A stretch of 64,000 nt of DNA, from the sequence record PX441839.1, one strand, 5' to 3'. Below, in pieces: positions 18,446-28,858 of this stretch (within the stretch, counting starts at the first letter, position 1; each line of letters starts with the position of its first letter). A program made the position numbers and the translations under genes. This stretch comes from a phage. A model generated the notes under the pieces. The model was not told where the DNA came from and searched no databases. It saw only the letters and a list, made by a program, of their open reading frames with translations.

Positions 18446-19936
18446 ATGGCTAAACCACGCAGCCAGCTTGTCGTTTGGGCAAGACAAGATGTTGCTTTGC
18501 CAAACACTGGCAGGATCAACAAAGTAAAACCTATTGATGACCTGTTGAATAAGGGTTATGATAAAGGTCAGAAGCCAGCGGCAGAAGAATTCAACTACAT
18601 CTTGAACATGTGTACCGATTGGGTACGATACATGCACGATGAGAAATTTCCAGAGTTTGAGAGGCAGATAGAAGAGAAGCTTGAAGCCTTCAAAGACGAG
18701 ATGGAAAAGGAGATGGACAAGGTCCGTGGGGAAATGGACCAATTGGAAGCCTCTGTTAATAATAAACTGGCGGCTTTTGAATCTTACCTTGTTCCAGTAG
18801 GGGCGGTTATTGCTTGGCCCTCTACAACAATACCGAAGGGTTGGTTAGAGTGTAACGGACAAGGTTTCAATATTGGTCAGAACCCCCGTCTGTATGCGGC
18901 ACTCGGAAGAGGTAACGTACCGGATTACCGTGGATTGTTCTTGCGAGGATGGGCACACGGTTCTGGTGAATATGATCCTGATGCAGGAAGGACTCTTGGC
19001 TCCATTCAGGGTGATGCCATTAGGAACATCACAGGTCGATTCGCTGCTGACCACGGTGAAACATGGATCATTGGTGCCTACAACGAGGGGGCCTTTTATG
19101 ATGCAGGTGTTGCTGGGTCTGGTGACAAGGGCGGGAAGGCAAACGAAACCCGTCAGATCCGATTTGATGCCAGTCGTGTTGTACCAACTGCGCCGGAAAA
19201 CCGACCTAAGAACATCGCAGTAATGTACATCATAAAGGCAGATGCTGCAACGGCAACTGGTGGTAATGTCCCAACAGGACTGGAAGTGACACCTGAAACA
19301 TTTGAGGGCCTTGTAGGTTCTACTTTCAGAGCCTCTGCTCAAGTTCTTCCAACGAACATGGCTCCTCAGTATCCTGTATCGTGGACCAGTCAAAACCCAG
19401 CAGTGGCAACTGTGGACGCCCAAGGTAATGTAAGAATTGTTGGTCAGGGGACAACAAGCATTATCGCATCAATATCTTCTGGGATGAACTCTAGGATCTC
19501 CATTGTGGGTCACAAACCTCTTACTGGCCTCTCTATCGCCCAGTTTGAAAATTTAGAGGTCGGTGGGAGCATAAGGACGACTGTAGCAAGAATACCATCT
19601 GATTCAACAGAACCCTTAATCTTCTCCACTGGCAACACAGGGATCGCCAACGTAACTCAAGATGGGGATGTTGTTGGGGTTGCAGAGGGAACAACTACCA
19701 TTTCTGCAAGGGGTCGGTTCACAGGGATAACTGCCAGAGCAAGCATAACCGTTGTTCCAGAAGAGGTTGTGACAACTGTTGAAGACATTATGCTGGGTAT
19801 TGAACAGCAAGCTCCAAACGCTGCACCAAAAGGATGTGTAATAACATACGTCGATGGTGGTGAAAACATGGAGTATGTCAGATATAAGCCCATCCAGAAG
19901 AAGGTAAATGGGGTGTGGGTAACTATTGAGGGTTAA
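18446..19936 (+). CDS. tail fiber protein with tail-collar domain and Ig-like repeats
   Basis: Coiled-coil N-terminus; collar-domain-like motif GWLECNGQGFNIGQNPRLYAALGRGNVPDYRGLFLRG; two or three Ig-like (Big_2-type) repeats (VLPTNMAPQYPVSWTSQNPAVATVDAQGNVRIVGQGTT...). Confidence 0.75.
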   Translation: MAKPRSQLVVWARQDVALPNTGRINKVKPIDDLLNKGYDKGQKPAAEEFNYILNMCTDWVRYMHDEKFPEFERQIEEKLEAFKDEMEKEMDKVRGEMDQLEASVNNKLAAFESYLVPVGAVIAWPSTTIPKGWLECNGQGFNIGQNPRLYAALGRGNVPDYRGLFLRGWAHGSGEYDPDAGRTLGSIQGDAIRNITGRFAADHGETWIIGAYNEGAFYDAGVAGSGDKGGKANETRQIRFDASRVVPTAPENRPKNIAVMYIIKADAATATGGNVPTGLEVTPETFEGLVGSTFRASAQVLPTNMAPQYPVSWTSQNPAVATVDAQGNVRIVGQGTTSIIASISSGMNSRISIVGHKPLTGLSIAQFENLEVGGSIRTTVARIPSDSTEPLIFSTGNTGIANVTQDGDVVGVAEGTTTISARGRFTGITARASITVVPEEVVTTVEDIMLGIEQQAPNAAPKGCVITYVDGGENMEYVRYKPIQKKVNGVWVTIEG

Positions 19937-21310: not shown

Positions 21311-21583
21311 ATGTTAAAATTCCTAAAGGACTTGATCCGGTCCACAACCGACCCTGCCAAGGCTTCACATACAAAGCTTTGGTCGAATATCGGTATGGCT
21401 TCAATGACTGCGGTGTTTCTCTGGTATGGTTTCAAAGGAACCCTCCCTGAGTGGTATTTGTGGGTTTATGCCCCTTCCGTTGCTGCACCACAGTTATTTA
21501 GCAAACTGATCGCCCTTCGTTGGGGAATAAACCCCAACCAGAAGAATACAGAAGATGAATTAAAAGGAGATCCTCGTGGCTGA
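21311..21583 (+). CDS. small membrane protein
   Basis: 90 aa with a hydrophobic segment (IGMASMTAVFLWYGF); AGGTGG RBS. Confidence 0.45.
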   Translation: MLKFLKDLIRSTTDPAKASHTKLWSNIGMASMTAVFLWYGFKGTLPEWYLWVYAPSVAAPQLFSKLIALRWGINPNQKNTEDELKGDPRG

Positions 21584-24500
21584 TGATATTATTCAACTGA
21601 TCAGTGCAGAAGCTGACGCCGCTGTTGACCAAATCATTGAAGACTCTGTAAGGCTTCATAAAGTTGTAAATGGAACTGGAGTTGAGACAGTTGTAACAGA
21701 AGATGGTAGCATAATCCCTTCTGTTCGAAAAGCCCTGATTGACAACTTGTATTTTAAGACCCCTCCAATTCCTTGGAGACAAGGAACACAGGTAAGAGAG
21801 TTTAACCAACTTTATTCCTTTACCGATGTAAACGGAAAAGCCACTTGGTGGTATGCACCAGGAGCTACAAACAGTTCACCAGTGACGCAAGGTGATCAGC
21901 CAGCTACGGATACAAGATGGAGAGTGTTCTTAGATGCTGGGAATATGGATGGGATCTATGCTCCGATCCTGTCTCCAGATTTCAAGGGAAATCCGAGAGT
22001 ACCCACCCCTGCGGAAGGTGATGAGAGCACCTCAATTGCAAACACACTGTGGACAAAAAATGCGATAGCAAAAGCTATTGACATTGCACTTCCTAACTGG
22101 GATGATGCAATTTTTAACAACATCACTGTTAAAAATAATTCGGTGCTCAATAATCTCAGAGCAGACGGGCAGGTAACTTTTACTGGTCCGAAGGTCGATG
22201 CTGTTGATTCAGAGTTCAACCTTAAAAAGATCAATCTCGTCGGGGAAGATGCAGAAATAAATTTCCTTTGGTCTGATGGATCAGGTTACAGAACAAACCT
22301 GACACCCAACAAGATCTTCACTGCGGAAATGACGGCAAACAGGGTCAAAGGTTCGTATGTTGAATCAGGAGAACCTCGTGCTGTTGGAACAACTATGCGT
22401 GGGCATGGAGAGGCAATCTTTGATACTGTGCATATCTCAAAAAACGAAAGACAGCCAGTGGATGCAGACACATTATCTGTCACTGGGATAACCCGTGTTC
22501 AAAACCTCATTGTAGAGGGAGAGGCAGTAGGGATCAAGTCTAACGTAGATGGAACAACCATCGCACCGAGCAACATAAACAATGATGGGCATATTAATAC
22601 CAAATCCCTGTATGTCTCCGAAGAGACTCAATTGGATGGTATTACAAGGATCGGTGATGTAGAATTCTTAGGGACTGTCAAGGGACTTGATATGAATATC
22701 GAGTTCGACGAGATGAACCTTAAGAGTTTAAATGTCGCAGAATCCCTTGTTGTTGGTGGACAAACAACAATGTCTGCCGCTGTTATCGGAGATGTTGTTT
22801 TCACTGGATCTGTGGCGGGTATCGTATTGCCACCTGCCAATGTCGATGGACAGGAAATAAAACCTGCCTCTGTTGAGACAGAAACTCTCGATGTGTTGGG
22901 AGAGACCGTTCTTGAGAACCTGACAGTAAATGGAACGGTGACTGGCATTGACATGTCTGTAGATGGAACAGACATATCCCCATCAAATGTTACGACAGGA
23001 AACTTAACCGTTAATGGACAGCTTACCATGAACGGGGCTATCCAAATTAACAATATTGATGGTGACTCTGTCAAGACGAAAACGTTAGAGGTCTCCAACT
23101 TAGCAACTGTTCAGAATCTGACTGTTCCAGAGGAAGGGACTATAACGGGTTTTGGAAAGGTTGTCAATGAGCAAGATATCCTTCCAAACTCTGTCTCTGT
23201 AAAAGAGGGGTTGTCTGTAGGAGGAACTACTAACCTGAGAGATGTGAACATCTCTGGGAAAGTAACTGGACTCAATCCCGATTTCGGGCCTGGTTCAACG
23301 ATTACCTCTGACACGGTAAATGCTAAAACGGTAAATGCTGATACTGTCAATGCAACTACTTCCAGGACTGGGAACATAACGGTTACTGGAAGGATCTTAG
23401 ATGCAGAAGGAAATGATTTTGCTCTCCGTGTAAGTCCAGAACAGATTGGTGAAGCTATCAAGGTTCTTGATATCCAGCCAAAAACCATTGTTACTAAAGT
23501 CAGTGATGAGGATAAAGGATCTGTAACCACAGGTACAATCACGGCTGATAATGGAAACATTGGAACTTTAGGGACCAGCAACCTCACCATGCAAAATGGT
23601 ACGGTAAACGGATCTTTGAAGGTGATGGGAGAGATCCTGGACAAGGATGGAAACCCTGTTGCAATTATGGACATTCCGAGCATGATTGCTGGGAAGGACA
23701 TCGCACCGAAGGACGTTAGATCCTCTGGCTCTGTAACTGCCGCTGTGGACCTTACCGTCAATGGAAAGGCCAAGGTAGGTGGAACCTTAGAAACAGGCTC
23801 TGTGACCGTTACAGGAGGTCTCAGCACAACAGGCAGTGTCACTGTAACTGAGCAGCTATCTGTTCTTGGCAACGCTGTTGTTTCTGGAAGTCTACAGTCA
23901 ACAGGTGCGGACATTGGAGGAACGACCTCTGTTGACAATCTGATTGTAGCTGGAACCCTTACAGATGCACAAGGGAACCCAATTGGATCTGTCGAGTCAA
24001 TCACAGGGAAGGATATCAATCCTCGTGCTGTAACTGCAACTGGTAATATTTCCACAACAGGGACTATTACCGGACAGTCTGGTAGAGTAGATGAATCATT
24101 CACTGTAGGAACTGACCTTGGGGTTTCAGGTAAGTTGTCAGCAGGAGAGACAACACTTGGAGTCACAAAAACATCTTCTCTGGAAACAGGTCCAATAAAG
24201 ACATCTGGAATATCTGTCCTTGAGGGTAGTATTTCGACAGGCAAAGCTGTGACTGTAGGAACTGACCTTACTGTAACAGACAATGCCGTCATCGGTCATG
24301 TAGATATGGATTTTGACGGTGATCGGTTGAAGGTTGTGGGGAACCAACGGGTAGAGGGGAACCTGTATGTAACTGGAAACATCAACGGGAACGTAGATAT
24401 TTCTGGGCAGGATATTAACCCGAGATCTGTAACTGCCTCTGGTAATATTTCGGTTGCAGGTACAATTAGCTCCGACATTGGAGATTTCAACTCTGTCGAG

Positions 24501-25064
24501 ATTGGTGTTTCTGGAACTGCGGTTGGCCTCAGGGTCCTCAATAATGCAACTTTTGCTGGAGATCTCACTGTCTCAGGAAAGGTCAATGCAACTATTGACC
24601 AATCCGAGCAAGATGTAGTGACAAAGAACCTGCAAACTGGTAATATAACTGCAACGGCTATAACTGCTGGAAGTTTAAATGTTACTGGTGCTCTTAAGGC
24701 CCCGACTTCGGATGTTGAGGCAAACAGTGTCACTGCAAACAAGTTCATGGTCACACCTCAAGAAAGAACGCTAGATACTGGGGCATTTATCCCTGATGGA
24801 ACAACCAATATCTACAATATTGTATTGACACAGAATACAAGAATTGAGGCCCCTAGTCAACTTATTCAAGGTGGCAAGGGTGGTTCTATCATTATCTACT
24901 TGAACCAGGATGCAACTGGTGGTAGGGAGGTAACATTCTCCACAGAGTATCAAGCTCTTAATGATGGTGAAATAAATATGAACCCTAGTGGTGTTACTGT
25001 GGTCCAGTTGATGTATTCTGGACATGGAAGCATCATTGATACACTTATCCTTCCTAGAGTGTAA
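21576..25064 (+). CDS. large repeat-rich tail fiber/tailspike-like protein
   Basis: 1162 aa; GTG start with AAAGGAG RBS; T/G/V/N-rich with many degenerate repeats of DI.P..V...GN..V.G type (for example DINPRSVTASGNISVAGTISS, DINPRAVTATGNISTTGTITG). Confidence 0.7.
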   Translation: MADDIIQLISAEADAAVDQIIEDSVRLHKVVNGTGVETVVTEDGSIIPSVRKALIDNLYFKTPPIPWRQGTQVREFNQLYSFTDVNGKATWWYAPGATNSSPVTQGDQPATDTRWRVFLDAGNMDGIYAPILSPDFKGNPRVPTPAEGDESTSIANTLWTKNAIAKAIDIALPNWDDAIFNNITVKNNSVLNNLRADGQVTFTGPKVDAVDSEFNLKKINLVGEDAEINFLWSDGSGYRTNLTPNKIFTAEMTANRVKGSYVESGEPRAVGTTMRGHGEAIFDTVHISKNERQPVDADTLSVTGITRVQNLIVEGEAVGIKSNVDGTTIAPSNINNDGHINTKSLYVSEETQLDGITRIGDVEFLGTVKGLDMNIEFDEMNLKSLNVAESLVVGGQTTMSAAVIGDVVFTGSVAGIVLPPANVDGQEIKPASVETETLDVLGETVLENLTVNGTVTGIDMSVDGTDISPSNVTTGNLTVNGQLTMNGAIQINNIDGDSVKTKTLEVSNLATVQNLTVPEEGTITGFGKVVNEQDILPNSVSVKEGLSVGGTTNLRDVNISGKVTGLNPDFGPGSTITSDTVNAKTVNADTVNATTSRTGNITVTGRILDAEGNDFALRVSPEQIGEAIKVLDIQPKTIVTKVSDEDKGSVTTGTITADNGNIGTLGTSNLTMQNGTVNGSLKVMGEILDKDGNPVAIMDIPSMIAGKDIAPKDVRSSGSVTAAVDLTVNGKAKVGGTLETGSVTVTGGLSTTGSVTVTEQLSVLGNAVVSGSLQSTGADIGGTTSVDNLIVAGTLTDAQGNPIGSVESITGKDINPRAVTATGNISTTGTITGQSGRVDESFTVGTDLGVSGKLSAGETTLGVTKTSSLETGPIKTSGISVLEGSISTGKAVTVGTDLTVTDNAVIGHVDMDFDGDRLKVVGNQRVEGNLYVTGNINGNVDISGQDINPRSVTASGNISVAGTISSDIGDFNSVEIGVSGTAVGLRVLNNATFAGDLTVSGKVNATIDQSEQDVVTKNLQTGNITATAITAGSLNVTGALKAPTSDVEANSVTANKFMVTPQERTLDTGAFIPDGTTNIYNIVLTQNTRIEAPSQLIQGGKGGSIIIYLNQDATGGREVTFSTEYQALNDGEINMNPSGVTVVQLMYSGHGSIIDTLILPRV

Positions 25065-25071
25065 TGTAAAC

Positions 25072-25101
25072 AATAGCCCCTACTAAGGGGCTATTTTACT
25101 T
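25072..25101 (+). terminator. rho-independent terminator
   Basis: TAGCCCCT-acta-AGGGGCTA hairpin followed by TTTTACTTTT. Confidence 0.65.
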
Positions 25102-25114
25102 TTGAGGAGACAAA

Positions 25115-27613
25115 ATGATACCTTTCCCATTATTAGGTGGAAAATCACCAACTCCACCACCGCCACTTCCAAAGGGCGTTTCTGGGTACTCAGGAACTAC
25201 CTACATAGGTGAAGATGGTGAAACTTGGTCTTGGAACAGGCAACTGGAGAGATGGATTAAAAAAGATCCGTTTCCAGTTGACGAAGGGCATCCTGAACAC
25301 TTCATGGTGGGGCCTGCAAAGATAGGCACAGATGGTTCTTTCCGATACTTCAATACTGTAACCAACGCTTGGGAAGATGTTCCTAACGGGAGCACCTTGG
25401 GGATGGTCCCTCTGACCCTGACAGATGAAGGCGTAAACATAGGGACATCGGTATTTGTAGAGTATCCCATTTATCAATCCGCTGGGTATGCCGTAGGTCT
25501 TGGAGGGTTCGCAAGACTGCTTGGGACGGAGGTACTGGGAAGACCAGATCTTATGGACCTGTACCTTATAGGAAGAAGAGGGGATTTCTTTTCACCTTCT
25601 CCTGCAAACCCTGACTCCACCAACGCAATTCTCGTAATTCGAAATGTTAAAAGGGATAGGGTGTGGAATACTTACCTGAACATGGTTGTGGAAACAAGTG
25701 ATGGGGAGATGTGGGCTTGGGGAATGAACTTCTATAATCAGTACGGCCCTTGGATAAGAAGCGGAGTAACAAGTTCCAGTCAACCACACATGAAGATAAA
25801 CCCATTCTCTAAAATATCTGATTTTCCAGTACCACCTGAGAAAATAAAAGATATCTTCCCCGGTGTAACAATGGTCATAGTTGCAGACACTGACGGGAAA
25901 TTCTGGTCCAAAGGGATTAACATTGGTCAGTTTAACGATATTGATGACCAAATTAGGACAGCCTGGGTAGAGATACCCGCAGATAGGTTCCCAGGGTTTA
26001 AAAAGTTTTATCGGAGTCTTAACGGAACAGGTGCCGCCAATGATCTTGCTTACACCAACTGCGTTTGGTATTTGACAGATACAGGGATAAGACATTTTGG
26101 AAATGTGTATGGAGTGATGGACGGTTCCCCACTTGTATCTGCAACAACTAGGGATCTCCCTGACAGTAAAGTTCACTCAGCCCCTGTAGGATTGCCTGAA
26201 AGGAATGATGAGCCTAAAATAGTGAGTTTTTCACTGGCCAGATCTTCTGACTATATCCTTATTGCTGTTTGGTATGATGACCCCGAAGAGATGTATGTTG
26301 CCTATCCTACTTCTGGACTTATTTGGGACCACGCAGATGGAGTAACGTATGGGAGGAGATTCAATAAATCCTCAGCCCCTGTAGGGAAGCATAGGAACCC
26401 CATACTGGACTTCAATAAAGAGGCCACCCTTATAACGGGGTTTGATGGAAAATTCTATGCTTCTGGGACCCCAAGTGTAAATAACGGGCTATACTCAAGA
26501 ACCAGCCCAACCACTTTTATCGACCAGAAGATGCCATCCTCTCTCGTTTATCAGGTTGAGCTATCCGACTCTGTAAACGGAAAAACTCAACTGTTGAGAA
26601 ATGATAGGCGTTCTTTAATGATAGCCGACCTTTCGGGAGGAAGCAACTACTTTGGAAATGGAACTTTCTGGAAACCAACTGCAACGATTAAGTGGCCTGA
26701 CTATCCAGACGCAATTCCAATAGTGTTCAAGAATGATGGTGTCACTATCTCGGGATCTGCTGAAAGGGTAGATACGTTTTGGGGGTGGAATGTTAGCAAC
26801 TACAACACTGTCAGCAGTACAGCCGGAGACCAGTACGGTGCTCCCAGTGGGGATGCTGTGCATGTCTCAGGGGAAGGGCACCTTACAATCTGGAAAGATG
26901 ATAGCAGTATCCTTGTTGGTGGTTACAACATAGGTGGAGTGTTTGGTGCTTTTAACCAGTGGAAGCAACCACAAGGTGCTGGAAGGTGGGTAGGCACAGT
27001 AAGAGAGTCTTTTACTGGCACATCGACAGTAAGCTGCGGAACCACTATTGCTTGGGATGGAAAAGATCATTACATATTTGGCAAAAACTACTGGGATGTT
27101 GCAAACGGACAACCAGTAATAAAGTTCAGTTCCTCTGCACCTGTAAAATGGAACAGTAAACAGGGATACCCGAACCTCCCTAATTTTATAAAATGGATTC
27201 CTGCAATTATGGGATATTCTGATGACGAGGGTTCTTTGCAACAACCCTTCTTTATGTATCGGGGTACTGACGGTCTGTTTTATGCTGCGGGTAGCAATAC
27301 AACAGGTGCCTTGGCGACAGGGACCCCACCTGAGACAAGGGATGAGCAAAGATGGACTTTTGAGGTAATGAAGGGATCTGAGGTGTTTGTTGGTAAAAAT
27401 GTTAAGGTTTACCACGGACACGGAAATACCTCTTGTTTGTTGTTCGCTTGCGAGGGAAAGGTGTACGGTGTTGGATTACCTAACAGTATGAAATGGAATG
27501 ACACCGGAACCATCCCTGACCCGTTCTTCCCTGGTTTCAACAGAAGGCTTAATGAAATCACCTACCTGATGGATTTGCCGGATGTTATCTATACCCGACC
27601 AATAGAAGAATAA
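25115..27613 (+). CDS. RCC1-like beta-propeller repeat protein (candidate distal fiber/receptor-binding protein)
   Basis: 832 aa; GAGGAG RBS; at least 5 repeats of [DG].G..[WYF]..G.N..G type (EMWAWGMNFYNQYG, KFWSKGINIGQFND, KFYASGTPSVNNGLY, LFYAAGSNTTGALATG, KVYGVGLPNSMKWND); last gene of the plus-strand operon. Confidence 0.6.
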   Translation: MIPFPLLGGKSPTPPPPLPKGVSGYSGTTYIGEDGETWSWNRQLERWIKKDPFPVDEGHPEHFMVGPAKIGTDGSFRYFNTVTNAWEDVPNGSTLGMVPLTLTDEGVNIGTSVFVEYPIYQSAGYAVGLGGFARLLGTEVLGRPDLMDLYLIGRRGDFFSPSPANPDSTNAILVIRNVKRDRVWNTYLNMVVETSDGEMWAWGMNFYNQYGPWIRSGVTSSSQPHMKINPFSKISDFPVPPEKIKDIFPGVTMVIVADTDGKFWSKGINIGQFNDIDDQIRTAWVEIPADRFPGFKKFYRSLNGTGAANDLAYTNCVWYLTDTGIRHFGNVYGVMDGSPLVSATTRDLPDSKVHSAPVGLPERNDEPKIVSFSLARSSDYILIAVWYDDPEEMYVAYPTSGLIWDHADGVTYGRRFNKSSAPVGKHRNPILDFNKEATLITGFDGKFYASGTPSVNNGLYSRTSPTTFIDQKMPSSLVYQVELSDSVNGKTQLLRNDRRSLMIADLSGGSNYFGNGTFWKPTATIKWPDYPDAIPIVFKNDGVTISGSAERVDTFWGWNVSNYNTVSSTAGDQYGAPSGDAVHVSGEGHLTIWKDDSSILVGGYNIGGVFGAFNQWKQPQGAGRWVGTVRESFTGTSTVSCGTTIAWDGKDHYIFGKNYWDVANGQPVIKFSSSAPVKWNSKQGYPNLPNFIKWIPAIMGYSDDEGSLQQPFFMYRGTDGLFYAAGSNTTGALATGTPPETRDEQRWTFEVMKGSEVFVGKNVKVYHGHGNTSCLLFACEGKVYGVGLPNSMKWNDTGTIPDPFFPGFNRRLNEITYLMDLPDVIYTRPIEE

Positions 27614-27621
27614 CAACCAAT

Positions 27622-27653
27622 AAAAAGGCTCCCGAATGGGAGCCTTTTCTTTT
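27622..27653. terminator. bidirectional rho-independent terminator between convergent operons
   Basis: AAAAAGGCTCCC-gaat-GGGAGCCTTTTCTTTT, A-run on one side and T-run on the other, between the + gene ending 27613 and the - gene ending 27659. Confidence 0.7.
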
Positions 27654-27658
27654 ATGTA

Positions 27659-28858
27659 TTACAGGACATAAATCACGTGGTTAGGATATTGAAGCCCTAC
27701 CGGAGCGAAGGGGATGTCATCATCGAAATCCATAACATCTGGGGTGTAGTCCAGATGACCATCATCGCTTACCGGAACTTGAGGATTAGTATCCTGAGGT
27801 TTTTGTTCCAGTTGAGGTTCAGGGGCTTTTTCTGGAGACGCGTCTTTCCGAACAAGGTCTTCTGTCGCATTGATGAATCGGAAGGTTGTTTCCACATTCT
27901 CAATAAACTGATCAATACCTTCTTGACTGTGTCGAGCAGCCAAGATACCGGATTGGCCCAGACGAGCACCAAACGCATAATCATCCATACCTTTGAACTC
28001 TTCCCGCAGCTTGGCCTTGATGGTATCCATAGCTTTCAGAACCTGCACCACAATAATTTGCTGATCGACGATAGCTGCATTTGGGAACATTGCATCTGTG
28101 ATAGTCAGTGCGTTGCCTAAACGAATCGGCAAGTCATCCTTTCCACCTTTACGGGAACCACCTGCACCACCTGCACCTTTTGGACCATAAGCCTTGAAAG
28201 CACTGATTGAACCATCAGCCGCCCGCTGACCAGCCAAACGACCACCCTCTTGGATCTGGGAGAGTTGCTCGTCTGACAGCTTAACGGTAACATCGCCATT
28301 ATCTGTCTTCACTACAACGTCTGAGCCGCTCACAGAGACGATTTCTCCGTAAACCTTAGTGGTTGCACCACCTGCACCTTGAGAGCCTCCCTGAGGTGTC
28401 TGAGAGCCTTGCGGAGCTACATCTCGAGCACCAGATGCATCGGTAATTTTAATTTTGTTCTTTTTACCCTCGGTGGAGGTTCGTTCATTACCCTCTCGGT
28501 CTTTGTAATATTTAACCTGCACTGGTAGACGAATCTTCATGCCTGGTTTAAGGCTTACATATTTGTCACCTTCTTTGATCTGGAACTGATCTTCGTATTT
28601 CAAGTTCTTAACTTCACCTTCTCCAAAAGAGATCCAAGCTGAATCTTCACCTTCTTTCAACAGGATAGAATAGCGATGGGTAGACTTGATAGTCTTACCT
28701 GCATTTGGACCCTTGTTGATGTGGGTGATTTTAGGACTACCGTCCTCATTGATACGTTTGATATTGATACGTTCAATTGTTCCAGCGGCGACGTGTACAG
28801 TCACATCATTAACAGCATCATAAACAGAGTTAACAACTTGAATTTTAACTTCGGACAT
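27659..28858 (-). CDS. hypothetical protein (Gly-rich linkers; internal DDDIPF motif)
   Basis: 399 aa; contains DFDDDIPF, which resembles the SSB acidic tail motif but is not at the C-terminus; function unassigned. Confidence 0.55.
   Translation of the reverse strand: MSEVKIQVVNSVYDAVNDVTVHVAAGTIERINIKRINEDGSPKITHINKGPNAGKTIKSTHRYSILLKEGEDSAWISFGEGEVKNLKYEDQFQIKEGDKYVSLKPGMKIRLPVQVKYYKDREGNERTSTEGKKNKIKITDASGARDVAPQGSQTPQGGSQGAGGATTKVYGEIVSVSGSDVVVKTDNGDVTVKLSDEQLSQIQEGGRLAGQRAADGSISAFKAYGPKGAGGAGGSRKGGKDDLPIRLGNALTITDAMFPNAAIVDQQIIVVQVLKAMDTIKAKLREEFKGMDDYAFGARLGQSGILAARHSQEGIDQFIENVETTFRFINATEDLVRKDASPEKAPEPQLEQKPQDTNPQVPVSDDGHLDYTPDVMDFDDDIPFAPVGLQYPNHVIYVL

Follow-up and report, generated by a model that had tools for sequence, protein, structure and literature searches.

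The window analysed here, a 64,000-nucleotide (nt) stretch of phage DNA (sequence record PX441839.1), carries on its plus strand, at positions 25115..27613 (ATG at 25115, stop codon included), a gene for an 832-amino-acid (aa) RCC1-like beta-propeller protein, hereafter the target. We propose that the target, made up of a conserved N-terminal peptide, probably two seven-bladed RCC1-like propellers and a conserved C-terminal tail, may well be associated with the virion as an accessory to the long tail fiber (LTF) and act there as an exchangeable, fiber-borne binding module. The target is the double-length form of an already known, functionally uncharacterised kind of protein. The proposed carrier is the 1162-aa LTF of the phiTE_241/phrog_4549 type (21576..25064, plus strand), assigned by PHROG matches and, on its orthologues, by Pfam PF26208 and PF26209. 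The fiber gene is followed by a 50-nt spacer and then by the target open reading frame, with a GAGGAG Shine-Dalgarno sequence at 25104-25109, 5 nt upstream of the ATG. An earlier note on this DNA had described the gene as closing the tail operon behind the long fiber, and this arrangement holds in the window and in every homologue context that we examined.

The same note had taken repeats of the pattern [DG].G..[WYF]..G.N..G as a hint of a propeller fold. The exact motif has no match in the target, but the underlying RCC1-like signal is borne out both by a relaxed form, G..[WYF][SAGTV].G.N, which matches three times (aa 197, 261 and 720; 0.02 matches expected from 2000 shuffles), and by a profile built from 12 sequences of the target family (alignment A1). 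From 1.84 billion representative proteins, the A1 profile recovers only three full-length representatives, together with ~145 proteins of the multi-repeat RCC1 type (E 1e-15 to 1e-3); the latter align almost solely to aa ~180-285 of the target, with a weaker patch at ~710-790. The Pfam scores of the target are all under the curated thresholds (PF25390, 36.1 bits versus 150; RCC1, PF00415, 16.8 versus 21.7; RCC1_2, PF13540, 18.1 versus 22), the PF25390 match lying at aa 191-270. No match was returned by a PHROG search of the target at E<=0.01, by an NCBIfam scan or by a PDB sequence search with the family profile. Structure prediction combined with Foldseek yielded, at moderate model confidence, a seven-bladed propeller with four-stranded blades, in line with the propeller fold suggested in the earlier note.

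The AlphaFold2 (AF2) model of the target contains ~57 strands, corresponding by strand count to ~14 four-stranded blades, and on this model the protein probably holds two seven-bladed RCC1-like beta-propellers. From the ~57-strand model and the colinear mapping of P0012, a single-propeller protein that has both termini in common with the target, we infer a layout consisting of an N-terminal motif (aa 1-22), propeller A (aa ~22-435; 25178..26419, plus strand), propeller B (aa ~436-790; 26420..27484, plus strand) and a conserved tail (aa ~790-832), the propeller boundaries being approximate. Propeller A is delineated by the RCC1 domain coverage map, the PF25390 match, hhalign and the strand pattern; it includes two N-terminal four-strand units (aa 22-88) and the sole strongly RCC1-like blades of the target (aa ~180-285; nt 25652-25969). 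Propeller B, with ~29 predicted strands, is the part colinear with P0012, and hhalign finds in it weak RCC1 blade matches at aa ~714-746 and ~776-823. A comparison of the two halves by hhalign (aa 100-435 versus 436-832) gave no signal of internal duplication, and the Pfam scan detected no immunoglobulin (Ig) domain in the target.

Compared with RCC1, UVR8, the RCC1-like domain (RLD) of HERC2 and RPGR (PF00415/PF25390), the Pfam scores of the target are sub-threshold throughout and most of its blades lack the repeat signature; nothing in it suggests the guanine nucleotide exchange or chromatin functions of eukaryotic and bacterial RCC1-like domains, its architecture and context being viral and structural. 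The seven-bladed propeller lectins Photorhabdus PLL and Burkholderia BP39L are only 7-9% identical to the target and score below the RCC1-like domains, and no sugar-binding motif was identified in it. The earlier description of the protein as 'depolymerase-like' found no backing: it appears very unlikely that the virion carries the target as a propeller-based enzyme (depolymerase, lyase or esterase) that breaks down glycans, since the searches brought up neither an enzyme family nor a catalytic motif, and no match to a sialidase/lyase fold. We likewise rejected assignment to the depolymerase/tailspike class, as the target displays neither a beta-helix nor a catalytic domain of the sialidase/lyase type whose enzyme family or active site could be recognised.

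The position of the gene is conserved. Full-length homologues are rare, amounting to four phage records (POP15, POP17 and POP18 at 63% identity; SSBI34 at 39%) and 11 clusters among 5.8 billion proteins, and a megablast search of the target gene against phage records gave no match. Members of the target family always lie directly 3' of a phiTE_241-type fiber gene and 5' of a convergent gene (window, POP15, SSBI34, L009, L010 and metagenomic contigs). In every relative examined, the slot after the phiTE_241-type LTF gene is filled by a propeller protein of 388-836 aa. Besides the target family, the occupants include members of phrog_15692 (CR3 gp034, 422 aa; CB7_37, 413 aa; the LTH01/W70 protein, 411 aa); CR9 gp033 (388 aa), with matches to phrog_4219 'regulator of chromosome condensation' (5e-85), phrog_11922 'tail protein' (9e-70) and the Pfam RLD (48.7 bits); P0012 (413 aa), present in three contigs, for which a scan of viral contigs revealed no relatives; and the 568-aa RCC1-Big_2 protein of 4MG/phAPEC8-like phages.

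Direct significant homology links the target to P0012 only: aa 36-115 and 297-410 of P0012 match aa 441-522 and 707-818 of the target, respectively (E 1e-18). The PHROG profiles of the Certrevirus-type slot proteins do not recognise the target significantly (phrog_4219, E 0.016), whereas phrog_4219 matches the SSBI34 orthologue at E 4e-6. At the profile level, hhalign connects the target family to the CR9 gp033 family A5 with 72.5% probability (E 3e-5), rising to 88% (E 3e-6) for aa 100-435 alone, and the latter family to the CB7_37 family A2 with 96% probability (E 4e-9). By contrast, the target family and the CB7_37 family show no global homology (1.5% probability; one blade at E 0.03), and BLASTP of the target against CR3 gp034 or CB7_37 is not significant, so that the link between the target and the proteins confirmed by mass spectrometry (MS; see below) is transitive. 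We regard the slot proteins, judging from these sequence relationships, as one very divergent propeller superfamily of which the target family would be a double-length branch, although this is not proven for every pair.

What the Certrevirus-type slot proteins (CR9 gp033, CR3 gp034, CB7_37, phiTE gp242 and W70_106) share with the target is the slot after the phiTE_241-type fiber, the N-terminal motif, the RCC1-like character and a preceding hairpin; they differ in being 388-422 aa long with one propeller, where the 832-aa target has an extra one. The ~570-aa proteins of the 4MG/phAPEC8 type also have the slot, the motif and an RCC1-like propeller in common with the target, but where the target has its second propeller they continue into Big_2 domains of the Ig-like kind. 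In this arrangement (L014, 612-4162; phage 4MG, KF550303, 21657-23354), a short, 599-aa phiTE_241-type fiber precedes the 568-aa propeller-Big_2/Ig fusion, which is recorded under the names 'Ig domain-containing protein', 'tail protein' or 'hypothetical protein'. The ~570-aa fusions and the 'tail protein' record names are hints of a surface role.

A common feature of the slot proteins is the N-terminus. All four slot-protein families begin with M-[IFY]-P-[FI]-[PAV]-h-h..GG..P-[LIV]-P-x-G-[VI] in the N-terminus alignment; start-to-start hhalign of the target family N-terminus gives E 6e-4 with the CB7_37 family and E 5.5e-3 with the CR9 gp033 family. In the target, this motif (aa 1-22, MIPFPLLGG..PPPLPKGV; 25115..25180, plus strand) occurs only once in the six-frame translation of the window and is modelled with a predicted local distance difference test (pLDDT) score of 27-40. 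The Pro-rich N-terminus pointed out earlier (SPTPPPPLPKG, aa 11-21) is indeed present and forms the second half of a ~22-residue motif kept across slot proteins that have otherwise diverged beyond recognition; the flexible linker suggested for it can be refined, as the conservation pattern is more in keeping with an element for attachment than with a linker of the generic sort, and we propose the motif as a docking peptide. The other candidate interaction segment is the C-terminal tail (aa ~790-832; 27482..27610, plus strand), which is distinct from the Certrevirus-type proteins and common only to P0012. It has the lowest column entropy of the family (0.43-0.70) and pLDDT <50 at aa 788-832. 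Within the target family, conservation is highest over the last 130 aa and the initial 9 aa, with low model confidence at both termini, and variability peaks at aa 120-140, 360-380 and 520-640.

Proteins from the same slot are virion components in two distant relatives. CB7_37 was detected in purified CB7 virions by tandem MS with four unique peptides and 19% coverage (PMC7344957), and W70_106 (phrog_15692, 44 kDa) yielded 115 spectra versus 996 for the 112-kDa phrog_4549 fiber W70_107 (PMC11370258). Its PHROG, its mass and its location beside the fiber lead us to identify W70_106 as the protein of the W70 slot. Normalised by mass, its spectra amount to ~0.3 per fiber chain, a crude estimate that is compatible with one copy per trimer. 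The view of the target as a distal tail component, put forward in the earlier note, receives only indirect support, from these two distant proteins. Three further RCC1-like proteins, W70_237-239 (phrog_4219, 40-43 kDa), are virion components of the related phage W70 (PMC11370258, Table 2), and because of this, propeller proteins may decorate W70-like virions at more than one site.

Virion presence also bears on whether the target is instead an assembly chaperone or scaffold, which would help the beta-helical LTF trimer to fold or mature and then be discarded or kept in traces. Genes just 3' of fiber genes often encode assembly factors, such as T4 gp38/gp57 and Tfa of Mu and P2, and the target gene occupies precisely such a position; moreover, the only recognisable chaperone of the block, a Caudo_TAP protein, follows the short fiber and not the LTF, and the conserved C-terminal domain of the LTF (see below) could equally be a chaperone-binding site. 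Nevertheless, we consider a chaperone unlikely: the slot proteins of two relatives are found at appreciable levels in purified virions, 830 aa and two propellers far exceed the size of known fiber chaperones, extreme allelic exchange is unexpected of a protein that serves a conserved domain, and the Ig-domain fusions in relatives point to surface display.

Genome comparisons show that the target gene is exchanged between phages as a discrete cassette and marks a recombination hotspot. Between the window and SSBI34, identity is 39% for the target, 73% for the fiber, of which the N-terminus is near-identical and the C-terminus well conserved, and 97% for the downstream gene; between the window and POP15, the target is 63% identical and its flanks 48% and 65%. 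At the DNA level, similarity to SSBI34 jumps from ~65% to near-identity exactly at the hairpin that follows the target stop codon. This hairpin (27623..27648, both strands), located by a terminator scan, is a bidirectional intrinsic terminator across which minus-strand genes converge on the target; it marks both the end of the tail module and the 3' recombination boundary of the exchanged gene. Among six phages, the slot gene is the only one of the block to drop to undetectable similarity, its neighbours remaining at 40-70%. This evolutionary pattern is host-range-like, resembling that of a gene involved in host specificity.

The fiber end next to the cassette behaves in the opposite manner. 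The last ~100-120 aa of the LTF (nt ~24700-25061; Phage_phiTE_241_C of Pfam on orthologues) are kept whichever slot protein follows, and the fibers with this C-terminal domain span 575-1187 aa with strongly different middle parts. Fiber tips are usually variable, so that a conserved distal LTF domain reverses the common pattern. We consider this domain a candidate partner of the slot protein. No C-terminal domain common to the long fiber and the collagen-like fiber of the same phage (31-2769) was found.

The spacer between the two genes is itself a conserved feature. In the window (25065-25114) it contains a GC-rich stem-loop followed by a T-run (25072..25095, plus strand), recognised by terminator scan and sequence inspection between the fiber stop codon and the Shine-Dalgarno sequence; this stem-loop is a possible attenuator or terminator. 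In all seven phages examined (the window plus L001, 11953-12003; L003, 10748-10790; L008, 5876-5919; L009, 7959-8003; L011, 7957-8003; L014, 2409-2458), the 40-50-nt spacer is filled by a GC-rich hairpin, a T-run and a Shine-Dalgarno sequence. The stem-loops have energies of -15 to -18 kcal/mol and their stem sequences vary among phages, indicating that structure rather than sequence is conserved. The hairpin could act by attenuation, setting the dose of fiber to propeller, or could stabilise the 3' end of the fiber mRNA. Shuffled sequences contain promoter-like sites as often as this region does, and the 50-nt spacer has none. A promoter of its own for the target was rejected on these grounds, the spacer being taken up by the hairpin and the Shine-Dalgarno sequence.

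Terminator-like hairpins on both sides and exchange as a discrete unit are also what might be expected of non-structural, moron-like cargo at the operon end, that is, a host-takeover, exclusion or anti-defence protein using the propeller as a protein-binding platform, and RCC1-like domains are known as generic platforms for protein interaction, as in BLIP-II and RCC1-Ran. Such cargo is, however, quite unlikely considering the absence of a promoter-like site in the spacer and of any enrichment over shuffles in the region, the presence of a slot protein in every relative examined, and the detection of slot proteins in virions by MS; furthermore, a structural partnership is suggested by the N-terminal motif that the slot proteins have in common and by the conservation of the LTF C-terminus.

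If the target is an accessory protein of the LTF, as we favour, it would be translated from the late tail transcript after read-through of the conserved hairpin, which may lower its dose relative to the fiber. The protein, probably as a monomer, would then dock on the conserved C-terminal domain of the trimeric LTF via the N-terminal motif and/or the C-terminal tail, and its variable propeller surfaces might bind a host structure (flagellum, lipopolysaccharide or another glycan), contributing to host range, with the gene being swapped between phages as a cassette. A parallel is offered by the gp38 adhesins of T2-, T6- and S16-like phages, which are encoded just 3' of the distal long-fiber gene, behave as host-range cassettes and form a polyglycine-rich sandwich. 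The target resembles them in gene position and cassette behaviour, and by analogy a gp38-like attachment to the conserved fiber tip at a sub-stoichiometric dose of ~1:3 can be envisaged; yet the two are unrelated in sequence and fold, the target being a propeller, and Pfam and PHROG scans of the target detected no gp38-related family. Taken to its full extent, this analogy would make the propeller protein a true receptor-binding LTF adhesin, exchangeable among phages of a flagellotropic-type group, with the trimeric fiber receiving, in its conserved C-terminal domain, the N-terminal peptide (and/or the C-terminal tail) of a monomer as a plug, in a gp38-like system reinvented on an RCC1 propeller; the tandem form would offer two binding platforms (e.g. 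for the flagellum and a cell-surface glycan), and the hairpin would set the ~1:3 dose. We advance this more specific scenario tentatively, as a possibility that we find rather doubtful.

Several considerations weigh against a fiber-borne accessory protein. The MS-confirmed proteins come from outside the 830-aa family and are tied to it only by synteny, by the common N-terminal motif and by a chain of homology that is transitive and in part weak. The AF2 confidence is moderate, and the count of two propellers derives from strand counting and from full-length Foldseek matches with low TM-scores. No result indicates a ligand or receptor, and the C-terminus is the most conserved part of the protein, an unusual polarity for a receptor-binding protein. 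The cryo-electron microscopy (cryo-EM) papers on phiTE (PMC11972413) and phi92 report no propeller on the fibers and mention neither gp242 nor RCC1. The phiTE study assigns the phiTE_241-type protein as the LTF, models only its residues 14-171 and calls the organisation of the distal half unclear (PMC11972413). The proposed docking would fill this gap at the distal long fiber.

Virions of large enterobacterial myoviruses, including Certrevirus, Septuagintavirus, 4MG/phAPEC8-like and Rak2-like jumbo phages, repeatedly contain RCC1-like proteins, which carry the label 'DNA condensation protein' through name transfer alone. RCC1-like virion proteins are mentioned in the papers on phAPEC6, CBB and W70, which go at most as far as a name-based idea of DNA condensation (W70: PMC11370258); the BASEL paper contains nothing specific on RCC1-like slot proteins. 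A protein that is packaged in the head and condenses DNA or the chromosome would agree with the names of CR9 gp033, GAP32 gp1 and phrog_4219 members ('DNA condensation protein', 'regulator of chromosome condensation') and with the speculation in the phAPEC6 and W70 papers (W70: PMC11370258). We rejected this assignment as based on the name only, and consider such a function highly improbable: the name was carried over from RCC1 of eukaryotes and finds no support in any phage experiment, the gene sits in a fiber cluster, and the Ig fusions, the host-range-like exchange and the RefSeq label 'tail protein' of CR9 gp033 all point to the tail. None of the four alternatives (chaperone, glycan-degrading enzyme, cargo, condensation protein) has positive support in our analysis. 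Comparison of the slot provides a concrete, testable model of host range for such phages, including candidates for biocontrol of Pectobacterium, Cronobacter and Salmonella, and identifies a natural cassette boundary for host-range engineering.

By sequence, the window phage is a myovirus of the Vequintavirinae close to the genus Certrevirus, its tail module being 84% identical at the nucleotide level to that of Salmonella phage SSBI34 and ~73% to those of CR3, phiTE and similar phages. On the plus strand, the module runs from the collagen-like fiber (31-2769) through the sheath, tape measure, baseplate and short Ig/collar fiber (18446-19936) with its Caudo_TAP chaperone to three small genes, the 1162-aa long fiber and the target; 3' of the terminator, the convergent minus-strand module encodes a DNA polymerase, a primase/helicase and other replication proteins. 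The collagen-like fiber (912 aa, G-X-Y repeats, phrog_3904) probably corresponds to CB7_10 and to the 'third putative fiber' that is unmodelled in phiTE.

The first convergent gene (27659-28858, minus strand) encodes a 399-aa protein (phrog_4477) with Gly-rich linkers and the sequence MDFDDDIPF near the C-terminus, which we take to be identical to the C-terminal tip of the Escherichia coli single-stranded DNA-binding protein (SSB). Neither Pfam SSB nor PDB sequence matches were found for this protein; it may resemble SSB as a whole or only mimic the SSB tail. The POP15 orthologue terminates exactly at ...DFDDDIPF, while the window and SSBI34 versions run ~15 residues further.

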